64,000 bases of DNA, taken from assembly GCA_020436165.1 (NCBI GenBank), contig JAGQYI010000076.1, positions 99,555 through 163,554 of the forward strand, read 5' to 3'. Shown here in pieces: positions 5,455-49,905 of this stretch. A program made the translations under genes and the position numbers. Under the pieces are notes generated by a model. It searched no databases and was not told where the DNA came from. It was given only the letters and a program-made list of their open reading frames with translations. Each line of letters opens with the position of its first letter. Position 1 is the first letter of the stretch. The stretch is from Cyclobacteriaceae bacterium (GTDB lineage Bacteria > Bacteroidota > Bacteroidia > Cytophagales > Cyclobacteriaceae).

Positions 5455-5656
5455 GAATTGTAGTTATCAACGGTTGCCAGTTCGAAAAGTTAATACAATT
5501 TTAGAAGATAGGCAGTTCAGTTGTATAGAACCCTTCAGCAATTATATAAACGGTCTGGCCAATCTGCCTTACATAGTTATAAATCGTTGATAAATGCGCT
5601 AAACCAATTGCAAAAACGGCAAATAATTGATTAATTGGTAATGAAATTCCTAATCT

Positions 5657-6466
5657 ATGAAAAAGCTTGTTCTGATTGCCTGCATTTTTGGGACTCCCTT
5701 TCTGTATGCACAATCAATGGAAGGTGAATGGCATGGTAAATTATTGGACGAAAATGGAGAGATAATAAATTACCTGAATATATCTATCGAAAATTCGGAT
5801 GGCAGACTGCATGCCATACGTAAGAAGCTAAACCCTAAAACAGATAACTGGGAGCCCGTAGCTGGAGATACTCAATTTGTATCTGCTAATAACAACGCTA
5901 TTCTTACTCAGATAAGTAAAGGAGATAAGTGGTCAGAGTCGGATGTTTTTTTGTTATCGTATATATCTGAAAAGAAAATATCGGTGATTTGGGTAAACCA
6001 GGTCAATAATTCAGGCACACCATATAATAAGGTAATTACAAAAACAGGAACCGGTTATCTTGAACCTTTTTACAATGGTAAAATTTATGAGAACTTATCT
6101 ATTGGAGGTACTTCCACCAACAGAGTTTCTATTGATCGGGTTGAGGTGGCCGATCCGGCTACCATCGTAACGTTTTCATACCACAATACATCGTTGGAAT
6201 CTGTAATGATGCGACTTACACCGCCTGGCTTTAGTGGGGCCTACTATATAACCCCACCTGACAGGTCTCGCAAATACACTATTGTTGATAAGGATAATAT
6301 CGCCTACGAGCCAGACAATACTGTGGTTGCTCCCAACAGTTACCACACCTTTAAAATATACTTTGAGCCAATCCCAGACTCTTTAAAGAGCTTTTCTATC
6401 CTGGAAGGAGATCCTCAGATACAGTCGGGAAAAGAATGGAATTTTTATGATATCCAGCTGAAATAA
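5657..6466 (+). CDS. hypothetical secreted protein
   Basis: Signal peptide (MKKLVLIACIFGTPFLYAQ). No known motif. Confidence 0.5.
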   Translation: MKKLVLIACIFGTPFLYAQSMEGEWHGKLLDENGEIINYLNISIENSDGRLHAIRKKLNPKTDNWEPVAGDTQFVSANNNAILTQISKGDKWSESDVFLLSYISEKKISVIWVNQVNNSGTPYNKVITKTGTGYLEPFYNGKIYENLSIGGTSTNRVSIDRVEVADPATIVTFSYHNTSLESVMMRLTPPGFSGAYYITPPDRSRKYTIVDKDNIAYEPDNTVVAPNSYHTFKIYFEPIPDSLKSFSILEGDPQIQSGKEWNFYDIQLK

Positions 6467-6472
6467 TTGCAA

Positions 6473-7060
6473 TCAGTCAGTTATTCCAAACTCATTCAAT
6501 TTCTCATAGATTTTCAGGCAAACCCAAGCATCTGTAGCAGCGTATACCTGTTGGCTCCTGTTCAACACAGGGTTTTCCCAATTAGAGGTTTGCTGAGATT
6601 TGGAAATACGAAAACCCAATATCATTGCCGCCAGTTTGCGTAAACCTGTGTTTACTACTCCATGTTTTTTAATAAGCGAATGAATATCCCTGAAGCCTTT
6701 AGGGCTAAACTTACCCAGCTTTTTAAGATCAATAATGTCATCGTGCAAGGCTACTCCCAGTTTTATTACATGTGGGTTTTCGAACAATGAACGGATTCGC
6801 TCTGTAAGACCAATTATGTTTATTCTAAATAGGTACACTTTGCCAGGTATGGCAAACTGAAGTAAGGAAACATGATGAAATTCGCCCTTCTGAAAAGATG
6901 GCTTTGATTCAGTATCAAACCCAACGATGGAGTGTTTCTCAATTTCCAAAACAGCTTCTTCTACATCCTCTTCTTTATCAATAAGGATTATCTTCCCAGA
7001 ATAGGCTCTGAGTGGCAAAGCATTCACTTCTTCCGATGAAATCCGTTCGCGCAGTGTCAT
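6473..7060 (-). CDS. 3'-5' exonuclease (RNase D-like DEDDy domain) protein
   Basis: VGFDTE…Y…D pattern typical of DnaQ-like 3'-5' exonuclease domain. 195 aa. Confidence 0.65.
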   Translation of the reverse strand: MTLRERISSEEVNALPLRAYSGKIILIDKEEDVEEAVLEIEKHSIVGFDTESKPSFQKGEFHHVSLLQFAIPGKVYLFRINIIGLTERIRSLFENPHVIKLGVALHDDIIDLKKLGKFSPKGFRDIHSLIKKHGVVNTGLRKLAAMILGFRISKSQQTSNWENPVLNRSQQVYAATDAWVCLKIYEKLNEFGITD

Positions 7061-8506
7061 TTATTCATTGTTGGGCTTAGAAACCAACTTGCGGATTTTT
7101 ATACCTAAATAGGCATAAGTGATCGTCATAAGCGGGCTCAGGTAATTAAAAAATGCGTAAGGTAAATAAGTAAAAGTGCTTACTCCCAAAACCGTTGATT
7201 GGTAGGCTCCGCATGTATTCCAGGGTACGATTGCAGAGGTTACCGTTCCGGAATCTTCCAATGTACGGCTCAGGTTTTCCGGAGCCAATCCTCTTTCGCG
7301 ATACGTTGGGGCATACATTCTGCCGGGCACAACAATAGAAATATATTGATCAGAAGCTGTTAAATTAAAAACCACGCAGGTTGCAGCTGTTGATGCTACC
7401 AAAGAACCCGTTGAATGAGCATACTGTATGATGCTATCTGCGATACGTTTTAGCATACCACTGGATTCCATTACTCCTCCAAAAGTCATCGCACAAATGA
7501 TCAGCCAAATGGTATTCATCATTCCGAACATACCACTTGCTGAAAGCAGTTCATCCACAGCCGCATTGCCGGTAACAATATTGGTTTGGCTATATAAGGC
7601 CAATAAAACTCCTTTGTAGTATGCCCATGCAGAAGGCACTGATGTTCCTGCAATTTCCAACACCAGGTTGGGTTGAAAAATAATTGCAAATACTCCACCT
7701 AATAAAGCACCCATTAGCAATGCGGGTATTGCAGGCGCTTTTTTAAGAATAGCTCCGATCACAACCAAAGGAACCACAAATAACCATGGAGTAATGGTAA
7801 ACTTAGATGCAATAGCTGTGTGAACTTCCTGTACGGTATCAATACTCGATTTGGTGTCTATAGTGAACCCCCAAATAAGAAAAATAAGGAGGGTTATTGA
7901 AATAGTTGGAACAGTAGTGTACGTCATGTAGCGTATGTGCGTAAACAGATCGGTACCGGCCATGGCAGGCGCCAGATTTGTTGTATCTGACATAGGCGAC
8001 ATCTTATCTCCAAAATAAGCTCCTGAAACGATTGCTCCTGCCACCAGGCCATCGTGAATACCCATTGCCTTTCCTATACCTACCAGTGCAATGCCAATGG
8101 TAGCAGCAGTAGTCCACGAGCTTCCAGTAGCAAGTGAAACAATTGCACTAACCACACATGCTGCAAAAAGAAAGATTGTAGGATTAAGAATGTCTAACCC
8201 GTAATAGATTAAGGCTGGTACAATGCCACTTAACAGCCATGTTCCTGCCAATGACCCAATCAGCATCAAAATAAGCATAGCCGACATGGCAGAGGTAATG
8301 CTCTTTACAATCCCATCAAGAATTTCATCCCACTTATACCCCAGACGTATGGCTATAATAGCGCCAACGGTAGCAGCAAACAATAACCCCATTTGGTTGG
8401 CTCCATAAGTGGCATCATCTCCAAAAAGCTGAACGTTGGTTACAAGTAAAAGTATTAACACTACTATAGGGAGAAGTGCTTGAAATAATGAGGGTCTTTT
8501 ATGCAT
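7061..8506 (-). CDS. nhaC: Na+/H+ antiporter NhaC family protein
   Basis: 481-aa polytopic membrane protein with NhaC-like repeated halves. Directly abuts downstream exonuclease gene. Confidence 0.75.
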   Translation of the reverse strand: MHKRPSLFQALLPIVVLILLLVTNVQLFGDDATYGANQMGLLFAATVGAIIAIRLGYKWDEILDGIVKSITSAMSAMLILMLIGSLAGTWLLSGIVPALIYYGLDILNPTIFLFAACVVSAIVSLATGSSWTTAATIGIALVGIGKAMGIHDGLVAGAIVSGAYFGDKMSPMSDTTNLAPAMAGTDLFTHIRYMTYTTVPTISITLLIFLIWGFTIDTKSSIDTVQEVHTAIASKFTITPWLFVVPLVVIGAILKKAPAIPALLMGALLGGVFAIIFQPNLVLEIAGTSVPSAWAYYKGVLLALYSQTNIVTGNAAVDELLSASGMFGMMNTIWLIICAMTFGGVMESSGMLKRIADSIIQYAHSTGSLVASTAATCVVFNLTASDQYISIVVPGRMYAPTYRERGLAPENLSRTLEDSGTVTSAIVPWNTCGAYQSTVLGVSTFTYLPYAFFNYLSPLMTITYAYLGIKIRKLVSKPNNE

Positions 8507-35778: not shown

Positions 35779-37647
35779 TCAATTAAATTCCGGCACCTTA
35801 CATTGTTCGCTCATTTGCGAAAGCAACTCTTTAAAATCTTTATGGATGGACTGTTGCATTAATTCAGAATTCTGATCGTGGCAGGTAAAACAGGCCCCCA
35901 CGGTAAGTATTTTCTTCTGCTCTTTAACCGAGAAAGCCCTGAAGGTTAACCTCGTTGAGGTTTTGGGCATTGGTTCCTGCAAAAAACCAATCCATGCATC
36001 TGCAGGCAAACCGTCCTGAGCCAGATTCACATATTTTGGCGTAAATATCCATTCCGAAGTGCTTTTATCAAACGAAAGCTTGCCATGTCCATACCCCAGA
36101 GCAACTGGGTTGTTGTGGCACGATTTGCAATCACGACCTTTCGTGGCCGTAGTGTGGGGGGCGGCCGGTGCAAACAATCGATGAAAGGATGTATCGTTTA
36201 GCATCTTACCAGGGAAAGCAGTTTGATCCAACGTGAAAATCATACCCGGAATAGCCGAATGCACCTCCCGTTCCCCATTCTTTTCACTCACACCAAGGGT
36301 AGTTGGCCCTGCCAGAAATTCACCTGCGTATTCTATCCAGGAACCTTTAATATACTTTTTATCCAATAAGTCATAGCCATTGGCATCAGGATCGTAGTCC
36401 ACATGGCAACCAATGCACTGGGGCGCCCAACTCGAGTGGCAACTCGAACAAGTAAGGTCTTTATGGCCAAACTCCCTGGTACATACGCTTGCAGGTTGGT
36501 TTAGCGGATACTCAATTCCGTTACTTTTTCCTATCATAAACGCCTTGTTATCCTCTTTTACAAACGTGTTAAGCAAAGGTGAGGCATCTTTTTGTGTTAT
36601 TAAAAACTGCCTATGCGAGTATCCGCGTAAATTGTAAATACTTTTATCAATAAACTTTAAGCTATCAACATTTACTGTATTCCTTTCTTCGTTAAAAGAA
36701 TGACAGTCCTCGCAGCTAATTTTAACTGCATCTTCCTCATGTACGTACGTTTTTCCATCGCCCATTACATCCGAATACGTATGGCAATCAATACAGATAA
36801 GTCCCTTTGTATGGTGTACATCTTCGGCTATGTATTTAAAAACACGATCATCCTGCAACACCCTGTACCCCTCCATCGACTGTAAACTGTCTTTATGCAG
36901 CAATGTCTCGTGGTATCCTTCGTAATTGGTGGCAATACGGCCCGAACGGCTATGGCAACCAAAGCAATGCTCGTTGGTAATATTCAAATCCAACGAAGGG
37001 TGAATTTGAGGAAGATGGCTTGAATCCCTTATATAAGCCGAATGTGCTTCTATACCATCAGTCGTATAGTTCAAATGGCACGCATTGCACCCTCCTCCCC
37101 TCGAAAGCTGGTCTACAGGGCCGGTTTCGGTTTTCTCGTTTCCCAAATGACAACGAGAACATAAATTTCGCAAATGCTCATCTGCAGCACTATGCCCTAT
37201 GTAAGCCATATGAGCCGGAATATCAGGAGAAGGCCTTTCACCGAAAATATATTTGTCTACACTCACAATACCACTATTGGTGGTCATCATTGAGGCACGA
37301 ATATTTTGAACTGCTTCTGCATGGCATGTACCACACGTTTTTTCCATTGAAGAAACGTTTCCGGGAATAACCACCATACCGGCATGTGCTTCCTCAATCG
37401 TTTTGGCTTTATTGTTACCCATATGGCAGGAAGTGCACCCAATATTCACATGGCTTTTGCTCATTCCTGTAACTTGCACATGGCAGCTAACACATTCGCC
37501 ACCAGACGCATAGGATGTTTCATAGCTATTTGTAGTGAGGTTACTGTCAGTAGATACGCTATCAGCATCGTGCAACCACTGAATGGCAACCAAAAGCACC
37601 ATTAAGGACAGTATTACAACAAGAATAGTATAAAATGTATTTCTCAA
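35779..37647 (-). CDS. membrane-anchored dodecaheme c-type cytochrome
   Basis: N-terminal TM/signal anchor. Twelve CxxCH motifs counted directly. No CxxCK. Confidence 0.85.
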   Translation of the reverse strand: MRNTFYTILVVILSLMVLLVAIQWLHDADSVSTDSNLTTNSYETSYASGGECVSCHVQVTGMSKSHVNIGCTSCHMGNNKAKTIEEAHAGMVVIPGNVSSMEKTCGTCHAEAVQNIRASMMTTNSGIVSVDKYIFGERPSPDIPAHMAYIGHSAADEHLRNLCSRCHLGNEKTETGPVDQLSRGGGCNACHLNYTTDGIEAHSAYIRDSSHLPQIHPSLDLNITNEHCFGCHSRSGRIATNYEGYHETLLHKDSLQSMEGYRVLQDDRVFKYIAEDVHHTKGLICIDCHTYSDVMGDGKTYVHEEDAVKISCEDCHSFNEERNTVNVDSLKFIDKSIYNLRGYSHRQFLITQKDASPLLNTFVKEDNKAFMIGKSNGIEYPLNQPASVCTREFGHKDLTCSSCHSSWAPQCIGCHVDYDPDANGYDLLDKKYIKGSWIEYAGEFLAGPTTLGVSEKNGEREVHSAIPGMIFTLDQTAFPGKMLNDTSFHRLFAPAAPHTTATKGRDCKSCHNNPVALGYGHGKLSFDKSTSEWIFTPKYVNLAQDGLPADAWIGFLQEPMPKTSTRLTFRAFSVKEQKKILTVGACFTCHDQNSELMQQSIHKDFKELLSQMSEQCKVPEFN

Positions 37648-37908: not shown

Positions 37909-40149
37909 ATGCGTACAAATCGAAGACAGTTTATTAAAATATCAGCTTTAGGAGCTGGTGGGGTAGCAGCCGTTTCCTCAACCAGTTTTGGCGGCTCATT
38001 TCTGTCCATCTTCGACTCTTCCGAGGATATCAGAGACATTGACTTCAAAAGGGTTCCAACCTATTGCGAAGTTTGTTTCTGGAAATGTGCCGGCTGGACT
38101 AATGTTGATAAAAAGGGCAATGTTGTTAAAATAATTGGCAACGAAGACGACCCTCATTGTAATGGACGCCTGTGTCCACGTGGTACAGGTGGAGTTGGTA
38201 TGTATACCGATACTGACCGACTAAAAACCCCTCTTATAAGAGTAAAGGGAGCAAATGGCGAAGAAGACACTTTCCGTGAAGCAACCTGGGACGAAGCACT
38301 TGACCTAATTGCAACAAAAATGAAAGGTGTGAAAGAAAAGTATGGGCCAGAAAGCTTTGCTTTACTTAAACACGGATCGTCAGGAGCACATTTTGAGCAT
38401 CTGTTCAAAGCTTATGGTTCTGACACCATTGGCGAGCCTGCCTATGCACAATGCCGCGGACCTCGTGAACAGGGTTTTGGTGCCACATTTGGAAGTTGGG
38501 TAGGTTCTCCTGAACCAACTGATATCCGCGATACCAAGTGCCTGGTGCTTATAGGTTCTCACATTGGTGAAAACATGCACAACAGCCAGGTACAGGAATT
38601 GGCTGACGCCATTGATAAAAAAGCAACAATCATAACCGTTGACCCACGTCTTTCAACCGTGGCTGGTAAATCACAGTACTGGCTGCCAATAAAACCTGCT
38701 ACTGATATTGCACTTTTATTATCCTGGATGCACGTACTTATCTATGAAAACCTGGTAGATGAAAAGTATATTGAAAAATATACCTACGGATTCAATGAGC
38801 TAAAAGAACACGTTAAAAATTATACTCCTGAGTGGGCTTACGGAATTACAACCATTGAACCAAGTGTGATAAGGAAAACAGCACGCGAAATGGCTGATGC
38901 TGCTCCTTCGGTAATTGTTCACCCTGGTCGCCACGTAACATGGTATGGAGATGATACACAAAGATCACGCGCCATAGCTATTTTAAATGGCTTGCTTGGC
39001 TCTTGGGGTAAACGAGGTGGTTTCTATCTGAAAGAGAAACTGGCTATTCCTAAATACCCTCAACCTCCATACCCACATCCGGAATGGGGATGGGAACAAA
39101 TTGGTGAAAAATACCCATTGGCTCAAATGGGAGTTACCAATGAGATTATTCGATGCTCAATCCCTGAAGAAGATACAGAATACAAGGTTAAAGCCTGGTT
39201 TGTTAGTGGAACCAACCTGCCAAAGAGTATTCCTGACAAAGACCAATTAGGAAAAGCGCTGGATTCGATCGAATTCCTGGCCGTTTGCGATACCATGCCA
39301 ATGGATATTACCGGTTATGCCGATGTAATCCTTCCTGAAGCAACCTATCTGGAAAGATACGATGGTTTGAGATCTGCTACCAACAGAGAGCCTTCGGTTG
39401 CTTTAAGGGCACCAGCCGTTGAACCTAAATACAATTCCAAACCATCGTGGTGGATGGCCAAGCAAATCGGAGAAAGATTAGGTTTGGGCGCATACTTTAA
39501 CTATAAAGATTATGCAGATGTACTTGACTGGCAATTGAAAAAAATCGGTTCTTCACTGGAAGAAATGAAACGCATTGGTGTGAAGAAGTTTGACCGCAAA
39601 AGTGGTCCTCTTTACATTGGCGATGGTGAAGATTACGAATTTGCTACCAATACAGGTAAAATAGAGCTTTACTCTACTGAATTGGCAAATATGGGTCACG
39701 ACCCTATGCCTAAGTACACTGCTCATGACGAACCTGATCAAGGATACTATCGATTGATCTACGGAAGAGCTCCAATGCATACCTTCAGTAGAACATCCAA
39801 CAACCCTAACCTGCACGACCTAATGAGTGAAAATAAGGTTTGGGTAAACCCACGTGTAGCCAAGATCTGGAATTTGCGAAACAACCAGGAGGTTTACCTT
39901 CAGAACCAGGACGGTGTTGTAAGTTCTTTCCCTGTTAAAGTTAGAGTTACGGAGCGTATCCGTTGGGACTCTGTCTATATGGTTCACGGCTTTGGCAATA
40001 CAGATAAACACTTAACCAGAGCTTACGGCAAGGGAGCAAGCGATACTGAATTAATAACTAAAGTATCAATCGATCCTTTGATGGGAGGAACCGGTATGAG
40101 AGGAAACTTTGTAACATTTATTACGGACAAAAATTTAGTTGAGTCATGA
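37909..40149 (+). CDS. TAT-exported molybdopterin (bis-MGD) oxidoreductase catalytic subunit, PsrA/PhsA/TtrA-like
   Basis: Twin-arginine signal (TNRRQFIKISALGAG). N-terminal Cys cluster C-x2-C-x3-C…C for [4Fe-4S]. 746 aa. Confidence 0.85.
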   Translation: MRTNRRQFIKISALGAGGVAAVSSTSFGGSFLSIFDSSEDIRDIDFKRVPTYCEVCFWKCAGWTNVDKKGNVVKIIGNEDDPHCNGRLCPRGTGGVGMYTDTDRLKTPLIRVKGANGEEDTFREATWDEALDLIATKMKGVKEKYGPESFALLKHGSSGAHFEHLFKAYGSDTIGEPAYAQCRGPREQGFGATFGSWVGSPEPTDIRDTKCLVLIGSHIGENMHNSQVQELADAIDKKATIITVDPRLSTVAGKSQYWLPIKPATDIALLLSWMHVLIYENLVDEKYIEKYTYGFNELKEHVKNYTPEWAYGITTIEPSVIRKTAREMADAAPSVIVHPGRHVTWYGDDTQRSRAIAILNGLLGSWGKRGGFYLKEKLAIPKYPQPPYPHPEWGWEQIGEKYPLAQMGVTNEIIRCSIPEEDTEYKVKAWFVSGTNLPKSIPDKDQLGKALDSIEFLAVCDTMPMDITGYADVILPEATYLERYDGLRSATNREPSVALRAPAVEPKYNSKPSWWMAKQIGERLGLGAYFNYKDYADVLDWQLKKIGSSLEEMKRIGVKKFDRKSGPLYIGDGEDYEFATNTGKIELYSTELANMGHDPMPKYTAHDEPDQGYYRLIYGRAPMHTFSRTSNNPNLHDLMSENKVWVNPRVAKIWNLRNNQEVYLQNQDGVVSSFPVKVRVTERIRWDSVYMVHGFGNTDKHLTRAYGKGASDTELITKVSIDPLMGGTGMRGNFVTFITDKNLVES

Positions 40150-40679
40150 GATACGCAATGGCAATAGACACCTTAAAATGTGTCGGATGTAGCGACTGTG
40201 TTGTCGCATGTCAAACAGAAAATAATGTGCCGATAGGCTACTGTCGCGACTGGATCACTGAGACAGTAGATGGTACCTATCCGCAACTGGAAATAGAATT
40301 ACGATCAGAACGATGCAACCACTGCGAAACCGCTCCTTGCGTACGCTGCTGCCCTACAGGTGCCAGCCAGATTGTAGACGGAGGTATCGTTATCGTGGAA
40401 CACGATGAGTGCATCGGTTGTGGAGCATGTATAGAATCGTGCCCTTACGAAGCACGTTACACCCACCCGGAAGGCTATGTAGACAAGTGTACTTTCTGCT
40501 TACACAGAGTAAAAGAAGGTTTACAACCTGCGTGTGTGGCCGCATGCCCTACCAAGTGTATGTACTTTGGAGATATTGACGACCCTAACAGCGAAATATC
40601 TCACATGCTTAAGACAAGAAAACAGAAAACACTTGCACCTGAAGCAGGTACTAATCCTCATATTTTTTACTTAATCTGA
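40146..40679 (+). CDS. 4x[4Fe-4S] ferredoxin-type electron-transfer subunit (PsrB-like)
   Basis: Four Cys clusters (CxxCxxCxxxCP pattern). 4-bp overlap with upstream gene. Confidence 0.85.
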   Translation: MRYAMAIDTLKCVGCSDCVVACQTENNVPIGYCRDWITETVDGTYPQLEIELRSERCNHCETAPCVRCCPTGASQIVDGGIVIVEHDECIGCGACIESCPYEARYTHPEGYVDKCTFCLHRVKEGLQPACVAACPTKCMYFGDIDDPNSEISHMLKTRKQKTLAPEAGTNPHIFYLI

Positions 40680-40686
40680 TTGAATC

Positions 40687-41637
40687 ATGAAAGAAGAATT
40701 AATCATTAGTGGAAGAAACCTGCCTCATATAGACCCACACCTTAGTTTGTGGCACTGGCCAATCTCCCTCTATCTTTTCCTGGGTGGTCTGGCAGCAGGA
40801 ATTTTGTTCTTTGCAGCTTTGGTAACACTCTTCCGTAAAGAAGAAAAATACCTGGGAGCAGTAAAATACGCAACCATTATACCTCCTATCGCACTTTCGG
40901 TTGGTTTGCTCGCACTGTTGTACGACTTAACCCACCTTTGGTACGCATGGAGACTTTATATGGTTATCAGGATCGAGTCGCCTATGTCGTGGGGTGCCTG
41001 GACACTCCTTTTGGTAACTCCTATCTCCTTCTTATGGATGATCAGTTACTTTAAAGAGTACTTCCCTAACTGGAAATGGCAGCAAGGTGTATGGAATTAT
41101 GCCAGCATTGCAATTGATTTTATTAATAAATACAAACGTGTGATGGCGTGGATACTCGTTCCATCAACCATTATATTAGGCATTTACACCGGTATTTTGC
41201 TGTCAGCGTTCAATGCACGTCCGTTGTGGAACAACTCTATTTTAGGGCCCTTATTCCTTACTTCAGGATTGTCAACCGGGGCTGCTGCCATTATTGTGCT
41301 TTCCAAATCGCACGATGAACGCAGAATGTTTAGCATGATCGACCTTGTTTTAATAGGTATCGAATTGTTCCTAATCACCCATATGTTGATGGGTATGCTT
41401 GCAGGCTCACAGGTACAACTGGAGGCTTCCGAGCTTTTACTGGGAGGTGAATTTACCGTTGCGTTCTGGGTGTTTGTAATTATCCTGGGACTCGCATTCC
41501 CTGCCGTTCTCGAAATATTTGAACTGATTGGATATAAGGTTCCTGCCGTAATACCTGCTTTACTGGTATTGCTGGGTGGTATGATCTTCAGATTTATAAT
41601 GGTAGATGCAGGACAGATAACAAGGTATTTATATTGA
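40687..41637 (+). CDS. NrfD/PsrC-family polytopic membrane quinol-interacting anchor subunit
   Basis: 316 aa, ~8 TM. Follows the A and B subunits by 7 bp. Confidence 0.8.
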   Translation: MKEELIISGRNLPHIDPHLSLWHWPISLYLFLGGLAAGILFFAALVTLFRKEEKYLGAVKYATIIPPIALSVGLLALLYDLTHLWYAWRLYMVIRIESPMSWGAWTLLLVTPISFLWMISYFKEYFPNWKWQQGVWNYASIAIDFINKYKRVMAWILVPSTIILGIYTGILLSAFNARPLWNNSILGPLFLTSGLSTGAAAIIVLSKSHDERRMFSMIDLVLIGIELFLITHMLMGMLAGSQVQLEASELLLGGEFTVAFWVFVIILGLAFPAVLEIFELIGYKVPAVIPALLVLLGGMIFRFIMVDAGQITRYLY

Positions 41638-41663: not shown

Positions 41664-42197
41664 ATGAGCTTTTGGAAAGAAGATAAATCGCACGTGTATT
41701 GGAACCCCTACTTTGGTGGTTTCATGCTAGGCCTGCTGCTTATCCTTACCTTTTATATTACCGGTAGAGGTGTAGGAGCTACAGGAGGCACAAAAAGTGC
41801 AGTTATAACCACGGTTGAAACAATTTCGCCTGAATATGCCCAACGGTCAAAGTATTATTCCAAATACTATGACGAAGGCACCAACCCTATGAAAAACTGG
41901 CTGGTGTTCGAAACCATTGGTATTCTGGCAGGTGCTTTCCTTTCAGGAGCACTTGCTGGTCGTGCTAAGTTCAGGATCCAGCATCCTCCTCACATTACAT
42001 CCAACAAACGTTTGGTGTTTGCTTCTATCGGAGGTTTACTTTTCGGATTCGGATCACAGTTTGCAAGAGGCTGTACCAGCGGTGCAGCGCTTAGCGGAGC
42101 GGCAGTGCTCTCTCTTGGTGGGTTCATCACCATGATTGGTATTTTCGGCACTGCCTACCTGGCTGCTTATTTCTTTAGAAAACTGTGGATTAATTAA
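41664..42197 (+). CDS. YeeE/YedE family protein, half-size (N-terminal repeat type)
   Basis: 4-TM half transporter with conserved FARGCTSGAALSG motif. Confidence 0.75.
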   Translation: MSFWKEDKSHVYWNPYFGGFMLGLLLILTFYITGRGVGATGGTKSAVITTVETISPEYAQRSKYYSKYYDEGTNPMKNWLVFETIGILAGAFLSGALAGRAKFRIQHPPHITSNKRLVFASIGGLLFGFGSQFARGCTSGAALSGAAVLSLGGFITMIGIFGTAYLAAYFFRKLWIN

Positions 42198-42216: not shown

Positions 42217-42807
42217 ATGGGACCTCTTACATATTTTGGAGAAATTTCAACAGAGTGGAACTACGTGATAGCACTCTTTATAGGTATGGCTTTTGGCTAT
42301 ATCATGGAAGCCTCGGGCTTCTCATCATCGCGTAAGCTTATCGGAGTGTTTTACGGATACGACTTTGCCGTAATACGCGTATTCTTTACCGCCACCCTGG
42401 TAGCCATTATAGGGCTGCTTTACATGGGCTATTTCGGATGGATCGATTATTCCGTATTGTTTGTTCACCCAACCTTTGTGGCCTCGGCTGCTATTGGTGG
42501 TGTTATTATGGGGCTGGGCTTTATTATGGGTGGTTTCTGCCCGGGAACGAGCCTTTGTGCCGTAGCTATTGGCAAGCTGGACGGATGGGTATTTACCATT
42601 GCACTGTTTGTGGGAATCTTTCTTTACTCTCAGGTGTTTCCCTGGATAGAGCCCTTGTACAATGCAGGTGATATGGGACATATTAAAATAACCGAGTACT
42701 TTGGTATTTCACAGGGGTGGTTTGCCTTTGGTTTTGCCGTAGTAGCGGTAGCTGTCTTCTTTATCACCACATTGATAAGAAGAAAAGTAAAAGATGTTAG
42801 ATATTAA
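42217..42807 (+). CDS. YeeE/YedE family protein, half-size (second repeat)
   Basis: GGFCPGTSLCAVAIG motif. 19 bp after first half. Confidence 0.75.
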   Translation: MGPLTYFGEISTEWNYVIALFIGMAFGYIMEASGFSSSRKLIGVFYGYDFAVIRVFFTATLVAIIGLLYMGYFGWIDYSVLFVHPTFVASAAIGGVIMGLGFIMGGFCPGTSLCAVAIGKLDGWVFTIALFVGIFLYSQVFPWIEPLYNAGDMGHIKITEYFGISQGWFAFGFAVVAVAVFFITTLIRRKVKDVRY

Positions 42808-42818
42808 ATAACATAACT

Positions 42819-43436
42819 ATGTCAAAAAGATATATTTTTCTGGCCGTACTCTTAATAGGATCTGCATTTGGCCTCACGCAATTGCCCGAAAAGCCAAATA
42901 AAAAACAGATTCCACCCGATGAGCTGCTGATCAAAATCTATGATCAGGCCAGGTACCTTACCACACGTGAAATAGCCAAGCGAATTATCGATCGCGATCC
43001 AAGTATTTTCCTGGTGGATGTACGCACACCAAGCGAATACGAGGAGTACGCTATTCCGGGTGCTTTTAATATCCCGTTGGAAAACATTTTGGACGACCAA
43101 TGGAGAGATTATCTTAATCAGGATGGTGTAGATGTTATCTTCTATTCGAATGGAACCATCTATGCCGATCAGGCATGGGATCTCATCGCCCAGCGGGGAA
43201 TTAAGAACCTGTACATTATGAAAGGCGGACTTAACGAATGGTTTGCCACCATCATAAAACCGGTTGCTCCGGATGAAACCGCTCCTTCCGAAGCGTTTGA
43301 TCAGTATGCTTTTGAAAAAGCAGCTAGTATTTACTTTGGTGGTTCCTCCGCAGGAGTTGATGCTGCCGCACCTGCTGAAAAGAAAGAAGTAGTAGTACGT
43401 AAAAAGAAAAAGAAAGCAGCCGAAGGTGGTTGTTAA
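42819..43436 (+). CDS. membrane-anchored catalytically Cys-less rhodanese-like protein with C-terminal KKKKKAAEGGC tail (paralog 1)
   Basis: N-terminal signal/anchor. Rhodanese-like fold (…VDVRTPSEYEEYAIPGAFNIP…) with Ser in place of active Cys. Low-complexity linker. Sole Cys is the last residue. Confidence 0.65.
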   Translation: MSKRYIFLAVLLIGSAFGLTQLPEKPNKKQIPPDELLIKIYDQARYLTTREIAKRIIDRDPSIFLVDVRTPSEYEEYAIPGAFNIPLENILDDQWRDYLNQDGVDVIFYSNGTIYADQAWDLIAQRGIKNLYIMKGGLNEWFATIIKPVAPDETAPSEAFDQYAFEKAASIYFGGSSAGVDAAAPAEKKEVVVRKKKKKAAEGGC

Positions 43437-43458
43437 TTAATTACTTAAACAATTAATT

Positions 43459-44085
43459 ATGGAAGAGTTAAAGAGAACAAAACGGATAACCATAGGAGTA
43501 ATTGCTTTCATTGCGGTGTTAGTTATAGGTTTCTTAACAGTAAAAAAACCTGTGGCTGTTTACAAATTGAGCCCTCAGCAAATGAACGATGACCTCATTA
43601 TGGTGTACCAGGTTACCCCTGAAGAAGCCTCTGAAATGATGGGCGACTCGGTAAAAAATGTTTTTGTAGATATCAGAAGCATTTACGACTACGAAAAAGA
43701 CCACCTGTATGGTGCTGTAAATATCCCTATTCCTAATCTGTTGGATAAGGAGATTCAGGAACAGTTCGATCAGTGGAAAAAGGATTCGGTAACGGTAGTG
43801 CTGTATGGCAATGACCAGCTACAGGCCAATTCACCCTGGATGCTCATGTACCAATTGGGGTACGACAATACTCGAGTACTTTTAGGTGGCATAAAGTATT
43901 ACGATGACTTTATGAATGGCCGACTAGCCGAAAACGAAACTTTTGAAATGGAAAACCCTGCCTACGACTTTAAGAAAATTATTGCAGAAGGCAGTAGTGA
44001 TAATTCATCGGTTGCCGCACAGGCGCCACAAAAAGAGGTAGTCGTACGCAAAAAGAAGAAGAAGGCTGCCGAAGGAGGTTGTTAA
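43459..44085 (+). CDS. membrane-anchored Cys-less rhodanese-like protein with identical C-terminal tail (paralog 2)
   Basis: N-terminal TM anchor. Rhodanese-like domain (…VDIRSIYDYEKDHLYGAVNIP…). Sole Cys is the last residue. Confidence 0.65.
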   Translation: MEELKRTKRITIGVIAFIAVLVIGFLTVKKPVAVYKLSPQQMNDDLIMVYQVTPEEASEMMGDSVKNVFVDIRSIYDYEKDHLYGAVNIPIPNLLDKEIQEQFDQWKKDSVTVVLYGNDQLQANSPWMLMYQLGYDNTRVLLGGIKYYDDFMNGRLAENETFEMENPAYDFKKIIAEGSSDNSSVAAQAPQKEVVVRKKKKKAAEGGC

Positions 44086-44111
44086 CCTAACGTAACAATC
44101 TTGTTTGTTTA

Positions 44112-44143
44112 GGCTGTCTGCCCATCGGTGGATGGCCTTTTTT
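44112..44143 (+). terminator. Rho-independent terminator of the sulfur operon (copy 1 of duplicated element)
   Basis: ggctgtctgcccatcggtggatggcc plus tttttt. Confidence 0.6.
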
Positions 44144-44168
44144 ATGTCCATTAAATGAAATAAATGAT

Positions 44169-44227
44169 GGTCGTAGGGTCTCCCTGCGACCTAGCTAGAA
44201 ATGGTCTTAGCGAGACGCTCAGACCAG
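44169..44227. repeat. REP-like composite: hairpin GGTCGTAGGG-TCTC-CCTGCGACC followed by palindrome GGTCTTAGCGAGACGCTCAGACCAG
   Basis: Related copies at 841-899, 1075-1099, 44351-44430. Confidence 0.6.
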
Positions 44228-44232
44228 AAAAA

Positions 44233-44264
44233 GGCTGTCTGCCCATCGGTGGATGGCCTTTTTT
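44233..44264 (+). repeat. exact second copy of terminator element
   Basis: Identical 32-mer 121 bp downstream of copy 1. Confidence 0.6.
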
Positions 44265-44705
44265 GTTATTAACATTCAATTACTGTAGAGGCAGGGATCT
44301 GCTAAATTAGAAGGGATTCCCACTTGCGTGGGAATGACGTTGCTTTCACTGGTCGTAGGGTCTCCCTGCGACCAATTGTTTCAATATCTGGTCTCAGCCT
44401 GCCAGCCGCAGGCGGGCGAGATGCTAAACCTTGTCAGCCATTACTTCTTAAATCTACCCCAAAAACCACACAAATAAGAAGGAATAAATAGGAGTTTGCA
44501 CTTTTAGACTATTGTCTAAGCTCCCCGGCCACCGTGCCGGGGTCTCCTTCTAACCTTTTGTGCAGACCATTAGCTCTAAATGCGGGTTTAAGAGAGTGGA
44601 AAAGACACCCTCCGCTTGCTTCGCAACCACCTCCCTCAAGGGAGGATTTGTGGAGTGTCCCCTTGAGGGGGCTTTAAGGGGTGTTTCTACCCTGCATAAC
44701 AAAAA

Positions 44706-44811
44706 ACGCCCTTCGACTTTTCTACATCCCCCTAATCCCCCTTCAAAGGGGGACTTCATCTTTTGGTCAGAAGGAATGTCCCCTTGAGGGGACTTTAAGG
44801 GGGTGTTAAAA
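44706..44811 (+). repeat. ~105-bp GC-rich direct repeat, left copy flanking DUF559 gene
   Basis: Near-identical to 45203-45310. Contains hairpins cccccttcaaaggggg and ccccttgagggg. A third copy of the 32-bp core lies at 44655-44686. Confidence 0.7.
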
Positions 44812-47312: not shown

Positions 47313-47675
47313 TTATGAAACCACTAATAATTCCTTCTCAATTACGTCTTTCAACACATTTTTTGGAAGTGCACCAGCCTGCATTTTAGGAGTATCATTC
47401 AAAGGAATAAACAACATGCTAGGTATGCTACGGATTCCAAATACAGCCGAAAGCTCTTGCTCAGCTTCTGTATCCACCTTGAATATATCGATCTTACCAG
47501 CGTATTCCTCTGATAACTCTTCCAAAATAGGTGCTACCATTTTACAAGGTCCACACCAGTCTGCGTAAAAGTCGATTAAAGCAGGTTTGTCGCCTGCAAA
47601 TTCCCATTCGGTTTTTGTTGTATAATCAAAAACTTTTTTCTTAAAATCTTCAGTACTTAATAATGTCGTTGCCAT
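47313..47675 (-). CDS. thioredoxin
   Basis: 120 aa with WCGPCK active site. Confidence 0.9.
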   Translation of the reverse strand: MATTLLSTEDFKKKVFDYTTKTEWEFAGDKPALIDFYADWCGPCKMVAPILEELSEEYAGKIDIFKVDTEAEQELSAVFGIRSIPSMLFIPLNDTPKMQAGALPKNVLKDVIEKELLVVS

Positions 47676-47723: not shown

Positions 47724-47739
47724 TGTGATGTAAGTCACA
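47724..47739. promoter_or_regulatory. perfect CRP-type palindrome TGTGA-N6-TCACA in trx/sqr divergent promoter
   Basis: tgtgatgtaagtcaca, about 60 bp from both start codons. Confidence 0.55.
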
Positions 47740-47795
47740 TGGCTAAATCATTTTTTTTTGCGAGATTAGGAAATTCAACATTTAATCAATTTCTT

Positions 47796-49142
47796 ATGAG
47801 TAATAGCAAGCATCAAATAGTAATTATAGGTGGAGGAACAGGAGGTATTATGGCTGCTGCACAGTTGTTAAGAGCGCGAAAAGGTTTGGATGTAGCAGTA
47901 ATTGAACCCTCTGAGCAACATATGTATCAGCCCGCATGGACATTGGTAGGTGCCGGCCTGATGAAGAAATCGGCCACCATTAAACCTGAGAAAAAAGTAA
48001 TGCCCAAAGGGGCTACTTGGATAAAGGAATATGTGGAAACCATCAATCCCGATGAAAACGAAGTAGTGCTTCAAAACGGAGACAAGATAAACTACGAATA
48101 TCTTATTGCTGCTCCTGGCATTCAGATTAACCTGGATGGCATTGAGGGGCTTAAAGAAACCTTTGGTAAAAATGGAGTTTGCTCCAATTATGTGGATCCC
48201 GACTACACCTGGGAGGTGCTTCAAAACTTTAAAAGCGGAGTTGGTTTGTTCACGCAACCTGCCACTCCAATTAAATGCCCGGGGGCACCACAAAAAATAA
48301 TGTACCTGGCTGCAGATTACTTAAGAAGGAAGAAAAGGGAAAGTGATACGCAGCTTGTATTTGCCACTCCCGGTACCGTAATTTTTGGTACTGAGCCATT
48401 TAAATCAGAGCTTACCCACTACATAAACGATGTGTACAATATACCTCAACGCTATGGCTACAAGCTGGTAAAAGTTGACGGTGAAAAGAAAGAGGCACAT
48501 TATGAGCGCTTAGCGCTACCCGATGGCCGTACTGATTATGTAGTAAATGACGAACGTAACGCTGCAGGTTGTATTGGCTATGTATGGGATGGACAGGAAC
48601 AATACGTGGTAGAAGAGGAGAACAATCATATTGATGAATTGAAAGAGGGCACAAATTTCATTATCAAATTTGATATGCTGCACCTGGCACCGCCTCAATC
48701 AGCTCCCGGCTGGTTCCAGAAAACCAAACTGGCTAATCCGGATGGCCCTAACAAAGGCTGGATGGCAGTAGATGATGCTACACTTCAAAGTAGATTTTAC
48801 CCCAATGTATTTGGTATTGGCGATGTTACCGATCTTCCTACGGCAAGAACAGGTGCCGCTATTCGAAAGGAGGCACCAACTGTGGTTAAAAACCTGTTAA
48901 GCATAATGGATGGCAAGGCAGCCGATTATAAAGGTTACAATGGATATTCCTCTTGCCCTTTGGTAGTATCGCACAATAAAATGCTACTTGCCGAATTTAA
49001 ATATGGAAATGTTCGCAGCTCAGATCCATTGCTTTCTAAATTCTTTAATTTGGGCAAAGCCAGCTACCCTATGTGGTTGATGAAACGCTACGGACTTCCC
49101 AACCTTTACTGGCATGCCATGCTTAAAGGATATCAATTTTAG
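47796..49142 (+). CDS. sulfide:quinone oxidoreductase-like FAD-dependent pyridine nucleotide-disulfide oxidoreductase
   Basis: N-terminal GGGTGG FAD fold. Conserved Cys in …IKCPGAPQK… and …YSSCPLV…. Genomic context. Start moved to MSNSKHQIVIIGGG (atg at 47796). Confidence 0.7.
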   Translation: MSNSKHQIVIIGGGTGGIMAAAQLLRARKGLDVAVIEPSEQHMYQPAWTLVGAGLMKKSATIKPEKKVMPKGATWIKEYVETINPDENEVVLQNGDKINYEYLIAAPGIQINLDGIEGLKETFGKNGVCSNYVDPDYTWEVLQNFKSGVGLFTQPATPIKCPGAPQKIMYLAADYLRRKKRESDTQLVFATPGTVIFGTEPFKSELTHYINDVYNIPQRYGYKLVKVDGEKKEAHYERLALPDGRTDYVVNDERNAAGCIGYVWDGQEQYVVEEENNHIDELKEGTNFIIKFDMLHLAPPQSAPGWFQKTKLANPDGPNKGWMAVDDATLQSRFYPNVFGIGDVTDLPTARTGAAIRKEAPTVVKNLLSIMDGKAADYKGYNGYSSCPLVVSHNKMLLAEFKYGNVRSSDPLLSKFFNLGKASYPMWLMKRYGLPNLYWHAMLKGYQF

Positions 49143-49266: not shown

Positions 49267-49905
49267 ATGCGCGAACTGGTAGAGAAACACTTTCCTTTTT
49301 TCAAAGAACCCGAATTAGTGGATGCCATTGTAAATGTGGGAAAGGAAATAATTGTGAAAGAAGGTGAGCCTATTATTAAAATAGGTGAATTCATTAAAAG
49401 CACACCCCTTATCACAGAAGGGCTTTTAAAAGTAATTCGTCAGGACGAAAGCGGAAATGAAATTTTGCTCTACTACCTGGAAGGAGGCAATACTTGTGTA
49501 ATGACAGTTACGTGTTGTATGCACCAGGAAAAAAGTAAGATAAAGGCAATTGCCGAAAAAGACTCCCACCTTATTCTTATTCCCTTCCATTACATGGACG
49601 ATTGGATGCGTAATTTCCGAACCTGGAGAAACTTTATTCTCCAAACATATTCATCCCGTTTCGAAGAAATGCTTTCAACGCTGGATGCCACTGCTTTTGA
49701 AAGCCTTGACAACCGATTGATCAAATACCTGAACGATAAGCAAACGGTTATGGGCACCGATGAGTTCAGGGTCACGCATCAGCAAATTGCTTCAGAACTT
49801 AACTCCTCACGTGAGGCGGTAAGCCGGCTTTTGAAAAAACTGGAAATTCTTAAAGCCATTCAATTAGGAAGAAACAAAATAAAGATTCTAAAAGAACTGC
49901 ATTAA
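49267..49905 (+). CDS. Crp/Fnr-family transcriptional regulator (cNMP-binding-like sensor plus C-terminal HTH) with C-x5-CC cluster
   Basis: Beta-roll region with GGNTCVMTVTCC. HTH …IASELNSSREAVSRLLKKLE with CRP-like R-E-x-x-x-R recognition helix. Confidence 0.8.
   Translation: MRELVEKHFPFFKEPELVDAIVNVGKEIIVKEGEPIIKIGEFIKSTPLITEGLLKVIRQDESGNEILLYYLEGGNTCVMTVTCCMHQEKSKIKAIAEKDSHLILIPFHYMDDWMRNFRTWRNFILQTYSSRFEEMLSTLDATAFESLDNRLIKYLNDKQTVMGTDEFRVTHQQIASELNSSREAVSRLLKKLEILKAIQLGRNKIKILKELH

Follow-up and report, generated by a model that had tools for sequence, protein, structure and literature searches.

Both cysteine-tipped C-terminal arms and the pairing of rhodaneses with polysulfide reductase (Psr) are already known in principle. 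SoxY, a periplasmic protein with an immunoglobulin-like beta-sandwich fold, bears its only functional thiol on a flexible C-terminal peptide that ends in GGCGG-COOH, and DsrC/TusE reaches into the active site of its partner with a flexible C-terminal arm that bears a reactive cysteine. Sud of Wolinella succinogenes, reportedly characterized by Klimmek in 1999, is said to be a periplasmic polysulfide-sulfur transferase with a rhodanese fold and a single cysteine, working together with PsrABC. The small single-cysteine protein TusA/YeeD (TsuB) is encoded beside the transporter YeeE and is required for YeeE function (PMC11582611, PMC13047784). Here we describe two adjacent genes, rhdA and rhdB, in a 64,000-nucleotide stretch of DNA from a Cyclobacteriaceae bacterium (GenBank assembly GCA_020436165.1, contig JAGQYI010000076.1, positions 99,555 to 163,554 of the forward strand; the whole stretch is hereafter called the window), whose products belong to an undescribed and widespread family of rhodanese-like proteins with an unusual, co-evolving tail that ends in cysteine.

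A rhodanese-like pair with a single conserved thiol

The two genes lie on the forward strand, rhdA at 42819..43436 (205 residues) and rhdB at 43459..44085 (208 residues), and their open reading frames agree exactly with those of the original prediction, which had been made from the letters of the sequence. Each product begins with one N-terminal hydrophobic helix, and both are members of the Pfam Rhodanese domain family PF00581 (58.8 and 56.0 bits against a cutoff of 22.2; E 7.9e-16 for RhdA and 6e-15 for RhdB), while no NCBIfam model matches either of them above its cutoff; 483 homologues of RhdA were found. The paralogues are only 37% identical overall, yet their last 17 residues, KEVVVRKKKKKAAEGGC, are the same (encoded at 43383..43433 in rhdA and 44032..44082 in rhdB). 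A shared ending had indeed been predicted, at a length of 16 residues, which is one too few. The single cysteine of each protein is its C-terminal residue, as had been proposed (Cys205, codon 43431..43433; Cys208, codon 44080..44082). The six kinds of synonymous codon difference previously listed between the two tails were also correct in kind, although they occupy seven positions in 16 codons, with aaa/aag occurring twice.

An AlphaFold2 model of RhdA (mean predicted local distance difference test score, pLDDT, 86) divides the protein into four parts. The N-terminal hydrophobic helix (42825..42887, residues ~3-23) is modelled as a transmembrane helix over residues 3-20 and appears as a hydropathy segment at 5-23 with MSKR on its N-terminal side; it could serve as a signal-anchor or possibly as a cleavable signal. 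The rhodanese-fold domain follows (42915..43256, residues 33-146), and a Foldseek search with the model returned generic single-domain rhodaneses as its top matches (TM-target score up to 0.82). Beyond the domain lies an extra helix (43287..43337, residues 157-173, ...FEKAASIYFGG), in which pLDDT is ~95 in the blocks covering 151-170 and drops to 70 in block 171-180; F165, A169 and F173 never vary among 116 sequences, and a similar motif, QIAAYFSG, recurs in a fused YeeE-rhodanese family described below. The flexible linker and tail make up the remainder (43341..43433, residues 175-205). From residue 181 onwards the means of 10-residue pLDDT blocks are 44-48, with segments 179-188, 196-199 and 202-205 below 50, so the last ~30 residues are predicted to be disordered. 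The flexibility that had been supposed for the tail is thus also what AlphaFold predicts, for RhdA and for a natural YeeE fusion alike (block means ~41-52 across the two).

The rhodanese domain has no catalytic cysteine. Active rhodaneses of the GlpE, PspE and Sud type open their active-site loop with a cysteine, whereas the corresponding residues here are Ser110 in RhdA and Gly117 in RhdB. Across 216 homologues the catalytic column holds Ser in 117 of 119 RhdA-type sequences and Gly in 85 of 97 of the RhdB type. Cysteine occupies it in just four, all RhdB-type (P0197, P0199, P0204 and P0205, with LYCN or LYCG) and all having the terminal cysteine as well; these could be ancestral intermediates or reversions, and because they keep LYCN at this place they fix the register of the alignment. 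A HMMER profile of the family aligned with PDB rhodaneses gives the same answer, setting the family's 'Y-s-n-d' opposite the 'Y-C-G-G' of 6mxv. The prediction had allowed that careful alignment might recover a catalytic cysteine after all; it does not, and the residue is truly absent. With the catalytic cysteine replaced, the tail cysteine is the only conserved thiol that these proteins possess.

One other cysteine deserves mention. RhdA residue 123 (~43185..43187), in the helix that follows the degenerate loop of the active site, is Cys in 27 of 36 cassettes, mostly in Flavobacteriaceae (...LCNRLGY); RhdA of the window has Ile123, so Cys123 does not characterize the family as a whole.

The tail and its genomic setting

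The Gly-Cys ending is close to universal among homologues. GGC closes 118 of the 120 listed RhdA homologues, the other two appearing to be frameshifted, and GC closes 102 of 104 RhdB homologues (106 were found in all). A profile search of 1.84 billion representative sequences (50% clustering) gave 367 clusters at E <= 1e-30, from which 148 representatives were retrieved; among the 131 of these that are short, 89 end in GGC, 19 in EGC preceded by consecutive Glu residues, one in VGC and 18 in GGC plus a single further residue (GGCG, GGCS, GGCD or GGCE). The remaining four look truncated or divergent, which leaves a GC-type end in 127 of 131. Homologues therefore do not routinely lack the tail or its terminal cysteine, a circumstance that had been named in advance as telling against the idea. 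The tail is conserved far beyond chance and is kept in hundreds of homologues.

The ending is also specific to this family. When KKxAEGGC followed by a stop was scanned as a degenerate DNA pattern through one genome per species (185,579 species), 59 loci were found, and 47 of them carry rhdA and/or rhdB or a YeeE fusion; this count includes locus L029, whose 37-residue reading frame is an RhdB truncated where the locus ends. The remaining 12 are short or non-family reading frames (5-57 residues, with one of 155 in a Lentisphaerae metagenome-assembled genome) and were judged to be chance matches. On long reading frames the pattern thus occurs only in this family, which makes the tail family-specific, and the same pattern had no match in viral contigs. 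Cultured carriers among the Flavobacteriaceae belong to Lutibacter, Polaribacter, Mariniflexile, Algibacter, Gaetbulibacter, Yeosuana and Thalassobellus, and include the marine strains Lutibacter maritimus DSM 24450, Mariniflexile fucanivorans DSM 18792, Polaribacter sp. R77954 and Algibacter sp. R77976; the tail is also present in Cyclobacteriaceae, Marinilabiliaceae, Rikenellaceae and other Bacteroidales. Database entries call these homologues 'hypothetical' or 'rhodanese-related sulfurtransferase'. Neither the models of Pfam and NCBIfam, beyond the generic rhodanese domain, nor the literature searched yielded a description of the family, in keeping with the original prediction, whose author knew of no described family with this architecture.

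Although the cysteine is invariant, the residues before it differ from one lineage to another, and they do so in step on the two proteins. Tail types that distinguish genomes include VVVRKKKKKAAEGGC, VIKLTKKKKKVAEGGC, KKVKKKVEEEEEGC and KKRKKKEVEGGCG. In 34 distinct genome pairs of RhdA and RhdB, the last 16 residues of the two proteins from the same genome are identical at 12.47 of 16 positions, against 9.72 +/- 0.26 when pairings are shuffled between genomes, and 0 of 10000 shuffles reached the observed value; the 16 residues just upstream of the tail match at only 3.53 of 16 within a genome. In locus L062, for example, both proteins end in ...KKVKKKVEEEEEGC, and the end that they share, ...TPKKVVPKKVKKKVEEEEEGC, is encoded with 12 nucleotide differences in 72. 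Both proteins of L060 end in TAGGC, and in L064 the tail KKKVKKRKKKEVEGGCG (...KKRKKKEVEGGCG) is found on RhdA and on a 375-residue lipoprotein with tandem rhodanese domains (6794..7921) that retains its catalytic cysteines. L064 contains three rhodanese genes altogether, of which the middle one (6140..6769, 209 residues, lipoprotein signal) keeps the cysteine at the catalytic position and has no tail.

Recent gene conversion was considered as a source of these identical tails and ruled out: codons for identical amino acids differ in 42% of cases within a genome and in 49% between genomes, and the linker agrees at only about 3.5 of 16 positions. Ancient or occasional conversion followed by selection may nevertheless have contributed to the likeness. 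The pattern is what strong purifying selection would leave, as had been argued from the synonymous differences in the window, and recent duplication does not account for it; judged by comparison of the tails within genomes, selection appears to keep them alike there while they diverge between lineages. Since the tails of one genome resemble each other while their codons approach synonymous saturation, a shared and co-evolving docking site is suggested.

The two genes close a seven-gene cassette, all on the forward strand. Its first gene, psrA (37909..40149), encodes a PsrA/PhsA-like molybdopterin catalytic subunit recognized by Pfam, with a twin-arginine signal (RRQFIK); its best PDB match is Thermus thermophilus PsrA 2VPW (E 1.6e-187, full length), and its match to the NCBIfam PhsA model (E 3e-141) lies under that model's cutoff. 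The next two genes are psrB (40146..40679), for a 4Fe-4S electron-transfer subunit (Pfam Fer4_11), and psrC (40687..41637), for an NrfD-type quinol-interacting membrane subunit (Pfam NrfD, E 1.2e-45). A bis-molybdopterin guanine dinucleotide subunit exported by the twin-arginine (Tat) route, a 4Fe-4S subunit and an NrfD membrane subunit together place the complex in the Psr/Phs/Sre type, with polysulfide, thiosulfate or sulfur as the possible substrate; sequence does not separate Psr, Phs and Sre, and in sulfur oxidizers Psr-like enzymes may catalyse the opposite reaction (PMC8359478). Two halves of a YeeE-type transporter follow. YeeE1 (41664..42197, 177 residues) resembles the C-half, matching positions 173-309 of Pfam Sulf_transp, and contains Cys137 (ARGCTSG); YeeE2 (42217..42807, 196 residues) resembles the N-half, matching positions 12-155, contains Cys108 (GGFCPGTS) and has in addition an H7-like fifth transmembrane helix. 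With two Sulf_transp halves and one conserved cysteine in each, this is a split YeeE/YedE transporter of the PmpAB or YedE1E2 type, although its subunits are longer than the ~130 residues of PmpAB (PMC11582611).

The order psrA-psrB-psrC-yeeE(C-half)-yeeE(N-half)-rhdA-rhdB is kept in every sufficiently long Bacteroidota locus but one, and it persists in distant members and in those with the tail variants EEEEEGC and GGCG. The exception is L002, from a Flavobacteriales metagenome-assembled genome, in which yeeE-yeeE-rhdA-rhdB (4789..7138) stands without psrABC in the 4.8 kb upstream, where menD-like and hypothetical genes are found instead; the arrangement suggests that YeeE and Rhd together form the core module.

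In other phyla the association goes further, because the YeeE N-half and the tailed rhodanese are a single protein. In L026 and L058 one polypeptide comprises the YeeE N-half, a further transmembrane helix, a rhodanese domain without catalytic cysteine, a Pro-rich spacer, KKKK and GGC. This fused family has 770 database matches, and all 120 of those listed have the GC end; its invariant residues include the YeeE cysteine and the terminal Gly-Cys. It was found in Gemmatimonadota, Latescibacterota, Delongbacteria and Longimicrobiales, where the fused gene directly follows psrABC and the yeeE C-half, giving one tail per cassette. Joining the YeeE N-half to the rhodanese and tail in one protein ties the putative carrier physically to YeeE, and the link with YeeE and Psr that had been guessed from the window proves very strong, resting as it does on both the seven-gene cassette across Bacteroidota and these fusions elsewhere.

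Some features are particular to the fused-type cassettes. A regulator of the ArsR/SmtB family (HTH_5/HTH_20) is encoded directly upstream of psrA in three of four (L066, 4378..4725; L067, 4437..4763; L026, 735..1085), but not in L068. The L026 regulator contains two cysteines and is in this respect reminiscent of persulfide-sensing repressors of the SqrR/BigR type, and the same cassette has two tandem psrC (NrfD) genes (3836..5818).

Membrane side and role of the terminal cysteine

Several topology arguments bear on the compartment in which the tail operates. In StYeeE the N-terminus is outside and the C-terminus inside, and helix H7 connects two halves of opposite topology (PMC7449682). YeeE2 contains five hydrophobic segments, an N-terminal loop with no lysine or arginine and five such residues in its C-terminal stretch, a distribution that fits an N-out, C-in arrangement. 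In the fusions, a loop rich in lysine and arginine and then a sixth transmembrane helix, the counterpart of the RhdA N-terminal helix, precede the rhodanese domain, which would place that domain outside. Several orthologues carry a lipoprotein signal in place of the transmembrane anchor, and PsrA has a Tat signal. The rhodanese domain and tail are thus most likely periplasmic, like PsrA.

This location bears on the choice of analogue. The original prediction had likened the pair to TusA/YeeD, but these are cytoplasmic partners of YeeE, on the wrong side of the membrane if RhdA and RhdB are periplasmic; they also have a TusA-like fold with the cysteine in a structured N-terminal motif, unlike a rhodanese, and RhdA and RhdB gave no match to any TusA/SirA-type model in Pfam or NCBIfam. 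Given that RhdA and RhdB are probably periplasmic, the GGCGG arm of SoxY and Wolinella Sud are better analogues. With SoxY the family shares a Gly-Gly-Cys near the free C-terminus (mostly GGC-COOH, with GGCG, GGCS, GGCD or GGCE in 18 of 131 representatives). It differs from SoxY in having a rhodanese fold and a cassette without SoxZ or other sox genes, in that the cysteine is usually the very last residue of an arm that is polybasic and ~30 residues long, and in being membrane-tethered or fused to YeeE, with a Psr/Phs-type molybdoenzyme as its partner.

Like Sud, RhdA and RhdB have a rhodanese fold and a single cysteine, and the constant co-location of rhdA and rhdB with psrABC supports an association with that enzyme; unlike Sud, they have Ser or Gly in the active-site loop where Sud has its cysteine, and carry theirs at the end of a disordered tail, while Sud is soluble and has no association with YeeE. 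Sud was considered as a close relative, but it is absent from the best 60 of 75 PDB sequence matches (E <= 0.01). DsrC is cytoplasmic, of unrelated fold, has two arm cysteines and has DsrAB for a partner, in all of which it departs from RhdA and RhdB. Inactive rhodanese domains (Alr3790; PDB 3k9r, 3ilm) offer the same fold without an active-site cysteine, the Alr3790 loop aligning as YGAGDEQ, but they have neither a membrane anchor nor a cysteine-tipped tail, and the conserved extra helix is missing from them as well.

Exactly three cysteines are invariant in all 36 of 36 cassettes: Cys137 of YeeE1, Cys108 of YeeE2 and the terminal cysteine of RhdA. By homology, Cys137 corresponds to StYeeE C293 at the periplasmic indentation and Cys108 to C91 on the cytoplasmic side (PMC7449682, PMC11582611). 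Taking these together with the features of the tail, we lean slightly towards the view that RhdA and RhdB are periplasmic swinging-arm carriers that move sulfane sulfur between PsrA and the pore of YeeE. Held in the periplasm and tethered to the inner membrane, each protein would use its dead rhodanese domain as a module that is probably for docking or scaffolding, from which would extend the ~30-residue disordered arm, made of a basic run, then small and acidic residues, then the invariant Gly-Cys-COOH. The terminal thiol would bind sulfane sulfur covalently, as a persulfide, polysulfide or thiosulfonate, and the arm would swing between two periplasmic places, the molybdenum site of PsrA and the mouth of the split YeeE channel, at which Cys137 of YeeE1 could take the sulfur and pass it to the cytoplasm-facing Cys108 of YeeE2. 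Two directions can be envisioned for the PsrA end of such a shuttle: PsrA may turn the sulfur on the carrier into sulfide, as happens with Sud and Psr in Wolinella, or it may work the other way round, charging the arm with sulfur that YeeE would then import. Both the covalent loading and the identity of the docking site are what we infer from these data.

Related transfers have been described or proposed elsewhere: rhodaneses supply sulfur to sulfur reductases (PMC6378623), the split YedE1E2 imports zero-valent sulfur (PMC10812762), and transfer from SoxYZ to the YeeE-like importer SoxT1A has been proposed (PMC11582611). A complete relay, in which a Psr-type enzyme acting as a sulfide (or polysulfide/thiosulfate):quinone oxidoreductase loads the cysteine arms, these insert their Gly-Cys tips into the pore of the split YeeE, and sulfur then moves from the tail cysteine to YeeE1 Cys137 and on to YeeE2 Cys108, is a tentative extension that we consider rather unlikely.

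A number of observations weigh against the carrier model. Because L002 has no adjacent psr genes, the system may be able to do without Psr. In the oxidizing periplasm a single thiol could be blocked or disulfide-bonded. The periplasmic indentation of StYeeE is positively charged (PMC7449682), which suits the anionic E-G-G-C-COO- tip and is at odds with the run of lysines. The model leaves both the polybasic stretch and the presence of two carriers in Bacteroidota unaccounted for, nor does it narrow down the docking partner among PsrA, YeeE or both. AlphaFold models of RhdA alone or of a fusion with a YeeE half gave no docking of the tail, whose pLDDT stayed below ~50; because these models lacked PsrA and the YeeE C-half, the result is uninformative rather than negative.

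The alternative that survives best is that the tail does not carry sulfur covalently at all but acts as a gate or plug, or as a regulatory or tethering peptide, for YeeE or PsrA. The anionic ...E-G-G-C-COO- tip might mimic thiosulfate or sulfide in the YeeE indentation or the PsrA funnel, with the cysteine as a ligand, a hydrogen-bond partner or one side of a reversible mixed disulfide with a channel cysteine. Physical association, as seen in the fusion with a YeeE half and in the invariant cassette, and the specific docking site to which tail co-variation points would also fit such a peptide, and StYeeE holds thiosulfate beside C293 through hydrogen bonds, non-covalently (PMC7449682). What this explanation does not supply is a reason for a Gly-preceded terminal or penultimate cysteine in more than 95% of members across phyla, or for two copies in Bacteroidota. 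Arms with a G-G-C signature, as in SoxY, are covalent carriers, which also counts against it, and we regard it as unlikely.

The terminal cysteine might instead be a structural or redox thiol, forming a disulfide between RhdA and RhdB or with a periplasmic oxidoreductase, or reducing and so resolving persulfides that arise on other proteins. That Bacteroidota have a pair of identical tails in each genome, in an oxidizing compartment, would make sense on such terms, and a thioredoxin gene lies nearby in the window and in L034 and L069. But fused systems manage with a single tail per cassette, two polylysine tails should repel each other, and the nearby thioredoxin lacks a clear signal peptide and does not accompany the cassette consistently; this role appears distinctly unlikely.

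Very improbable, in our judgment, is that the polybasic run and terminal cysteine form a signal for lipidation, sorting or another modification that would give the protein a second membrane attachment. A polybasic stretch beside a terminal cysteine does resemble eukaryotic prenylation and acylation signals, and co-variation would fit the specific recognition of the tail that such a signal implies. We know of no bacterial system for C-terminal cysteine lipidation, however, and the cassette, with only Psr, YeeE and Rhd genes, offers no candidate modifying enzyme; the proteins already have an N-terminal anchor or lipoprotein signal, and the tail pattern marks no other family in the 185,579 species genomes, unlike a general sorting signal. 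That RhdA and RhdB are ordinary sulfurtransferases, or substrate-binding pseudo-rhodaneses with an incidental low-complexity tail, as the generic Pfam match and the 'rhodanese-related sulfurtransferase' annotations would have it, is scarcely credible when the catalytic cysteine is missing and no part of the protein is better conserved across phyla than the tail, which is under both strong purifying and co-evolutionary selection, so that the conservation data contradict it.

Neighbouring genes and wider significance

Downstream of rhdB, a terminator-like hairpin with a T-run (44111..44143, forward strand, 33 nt; second copy at 44232..44264) likely marks the operon end. The region 44111..44802 is rich in short repeats, among them a 24-nt unit present three times (44168, 44202, 44350) and a 30-nt unit present twice (44652, 44773), and Rfam had no match in the window. 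Upstream and divergent from psrA, a membrane-anchored cytochrome c with 12 CxxCH motifs (35779..37647, reverse strand; Pfam cytochrome c7/c3) may be the electron partner of the cassette. Homologues of this 12-haem cytochrome lie upstream of psrA in eight other loci (L011, L030, L034, L041, L047, L049, L057 and L060), and the L060 homologue has a cytochrome b domain fused to it and adjoins a Rieske protein.

Further downstream in the window are the thioredoxin gene mentioned above (WCGPC; 47313..47675, reverse strand), a flavoprotein resembling type III sulfide:quinone oxidoreductase (SQR; 47739..49142, forward strand; NCBIfam SQR_III, E 1.2e-58, below cutoff), with SQR-like genes also in L005, L032 and L060, and, ~5 kb from rhdB, a Crp/Fnr-family regulator (49267..49905, forward strand). 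A regulator of the same family lies directly 3' of rhdB in many Flavobacteriaceae loci (L005, L010, L011, L046, L055, L056 and others).

On how sulfur might be handed between periplasmic enzymes and YeeE channels, the SoxYZ-SoxT proposal is the only published idea that we found (PMC11582611). The family described here offers a compact, widespread and testable case of such a hand-over, with an invariant thiol on a flexible arm beside Psr and a split YeeE. If the complete relay outlined above is real, it would add a new class of carrier, in which a co-evolving docking tail is joined to a dead rhodanese scaffold, spread over at least five phylum-level lineages, and it would provide the first defined periplasmic donor for an importer of the YeeE family. 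Tails that are specific to a lineage and identical within a genome constitute a natural experiment for mapping the interface between a peptide and its receptor. There is also a consequence for annotation, in that the label 'rhodanese-related sulfurtransferase' now sits on proteins without a catalytic cysteine. More broadly, psrABC in Bacteroidota and Gemmatimonadota is customarily interpreted as 'polysulfide reductase' and nothing more. A module of its own, made up of a putative carrier and a channel, accompanies it there, and this module should alter the sulfur-cycling roles that are inferred for psrABC from metagenomes.

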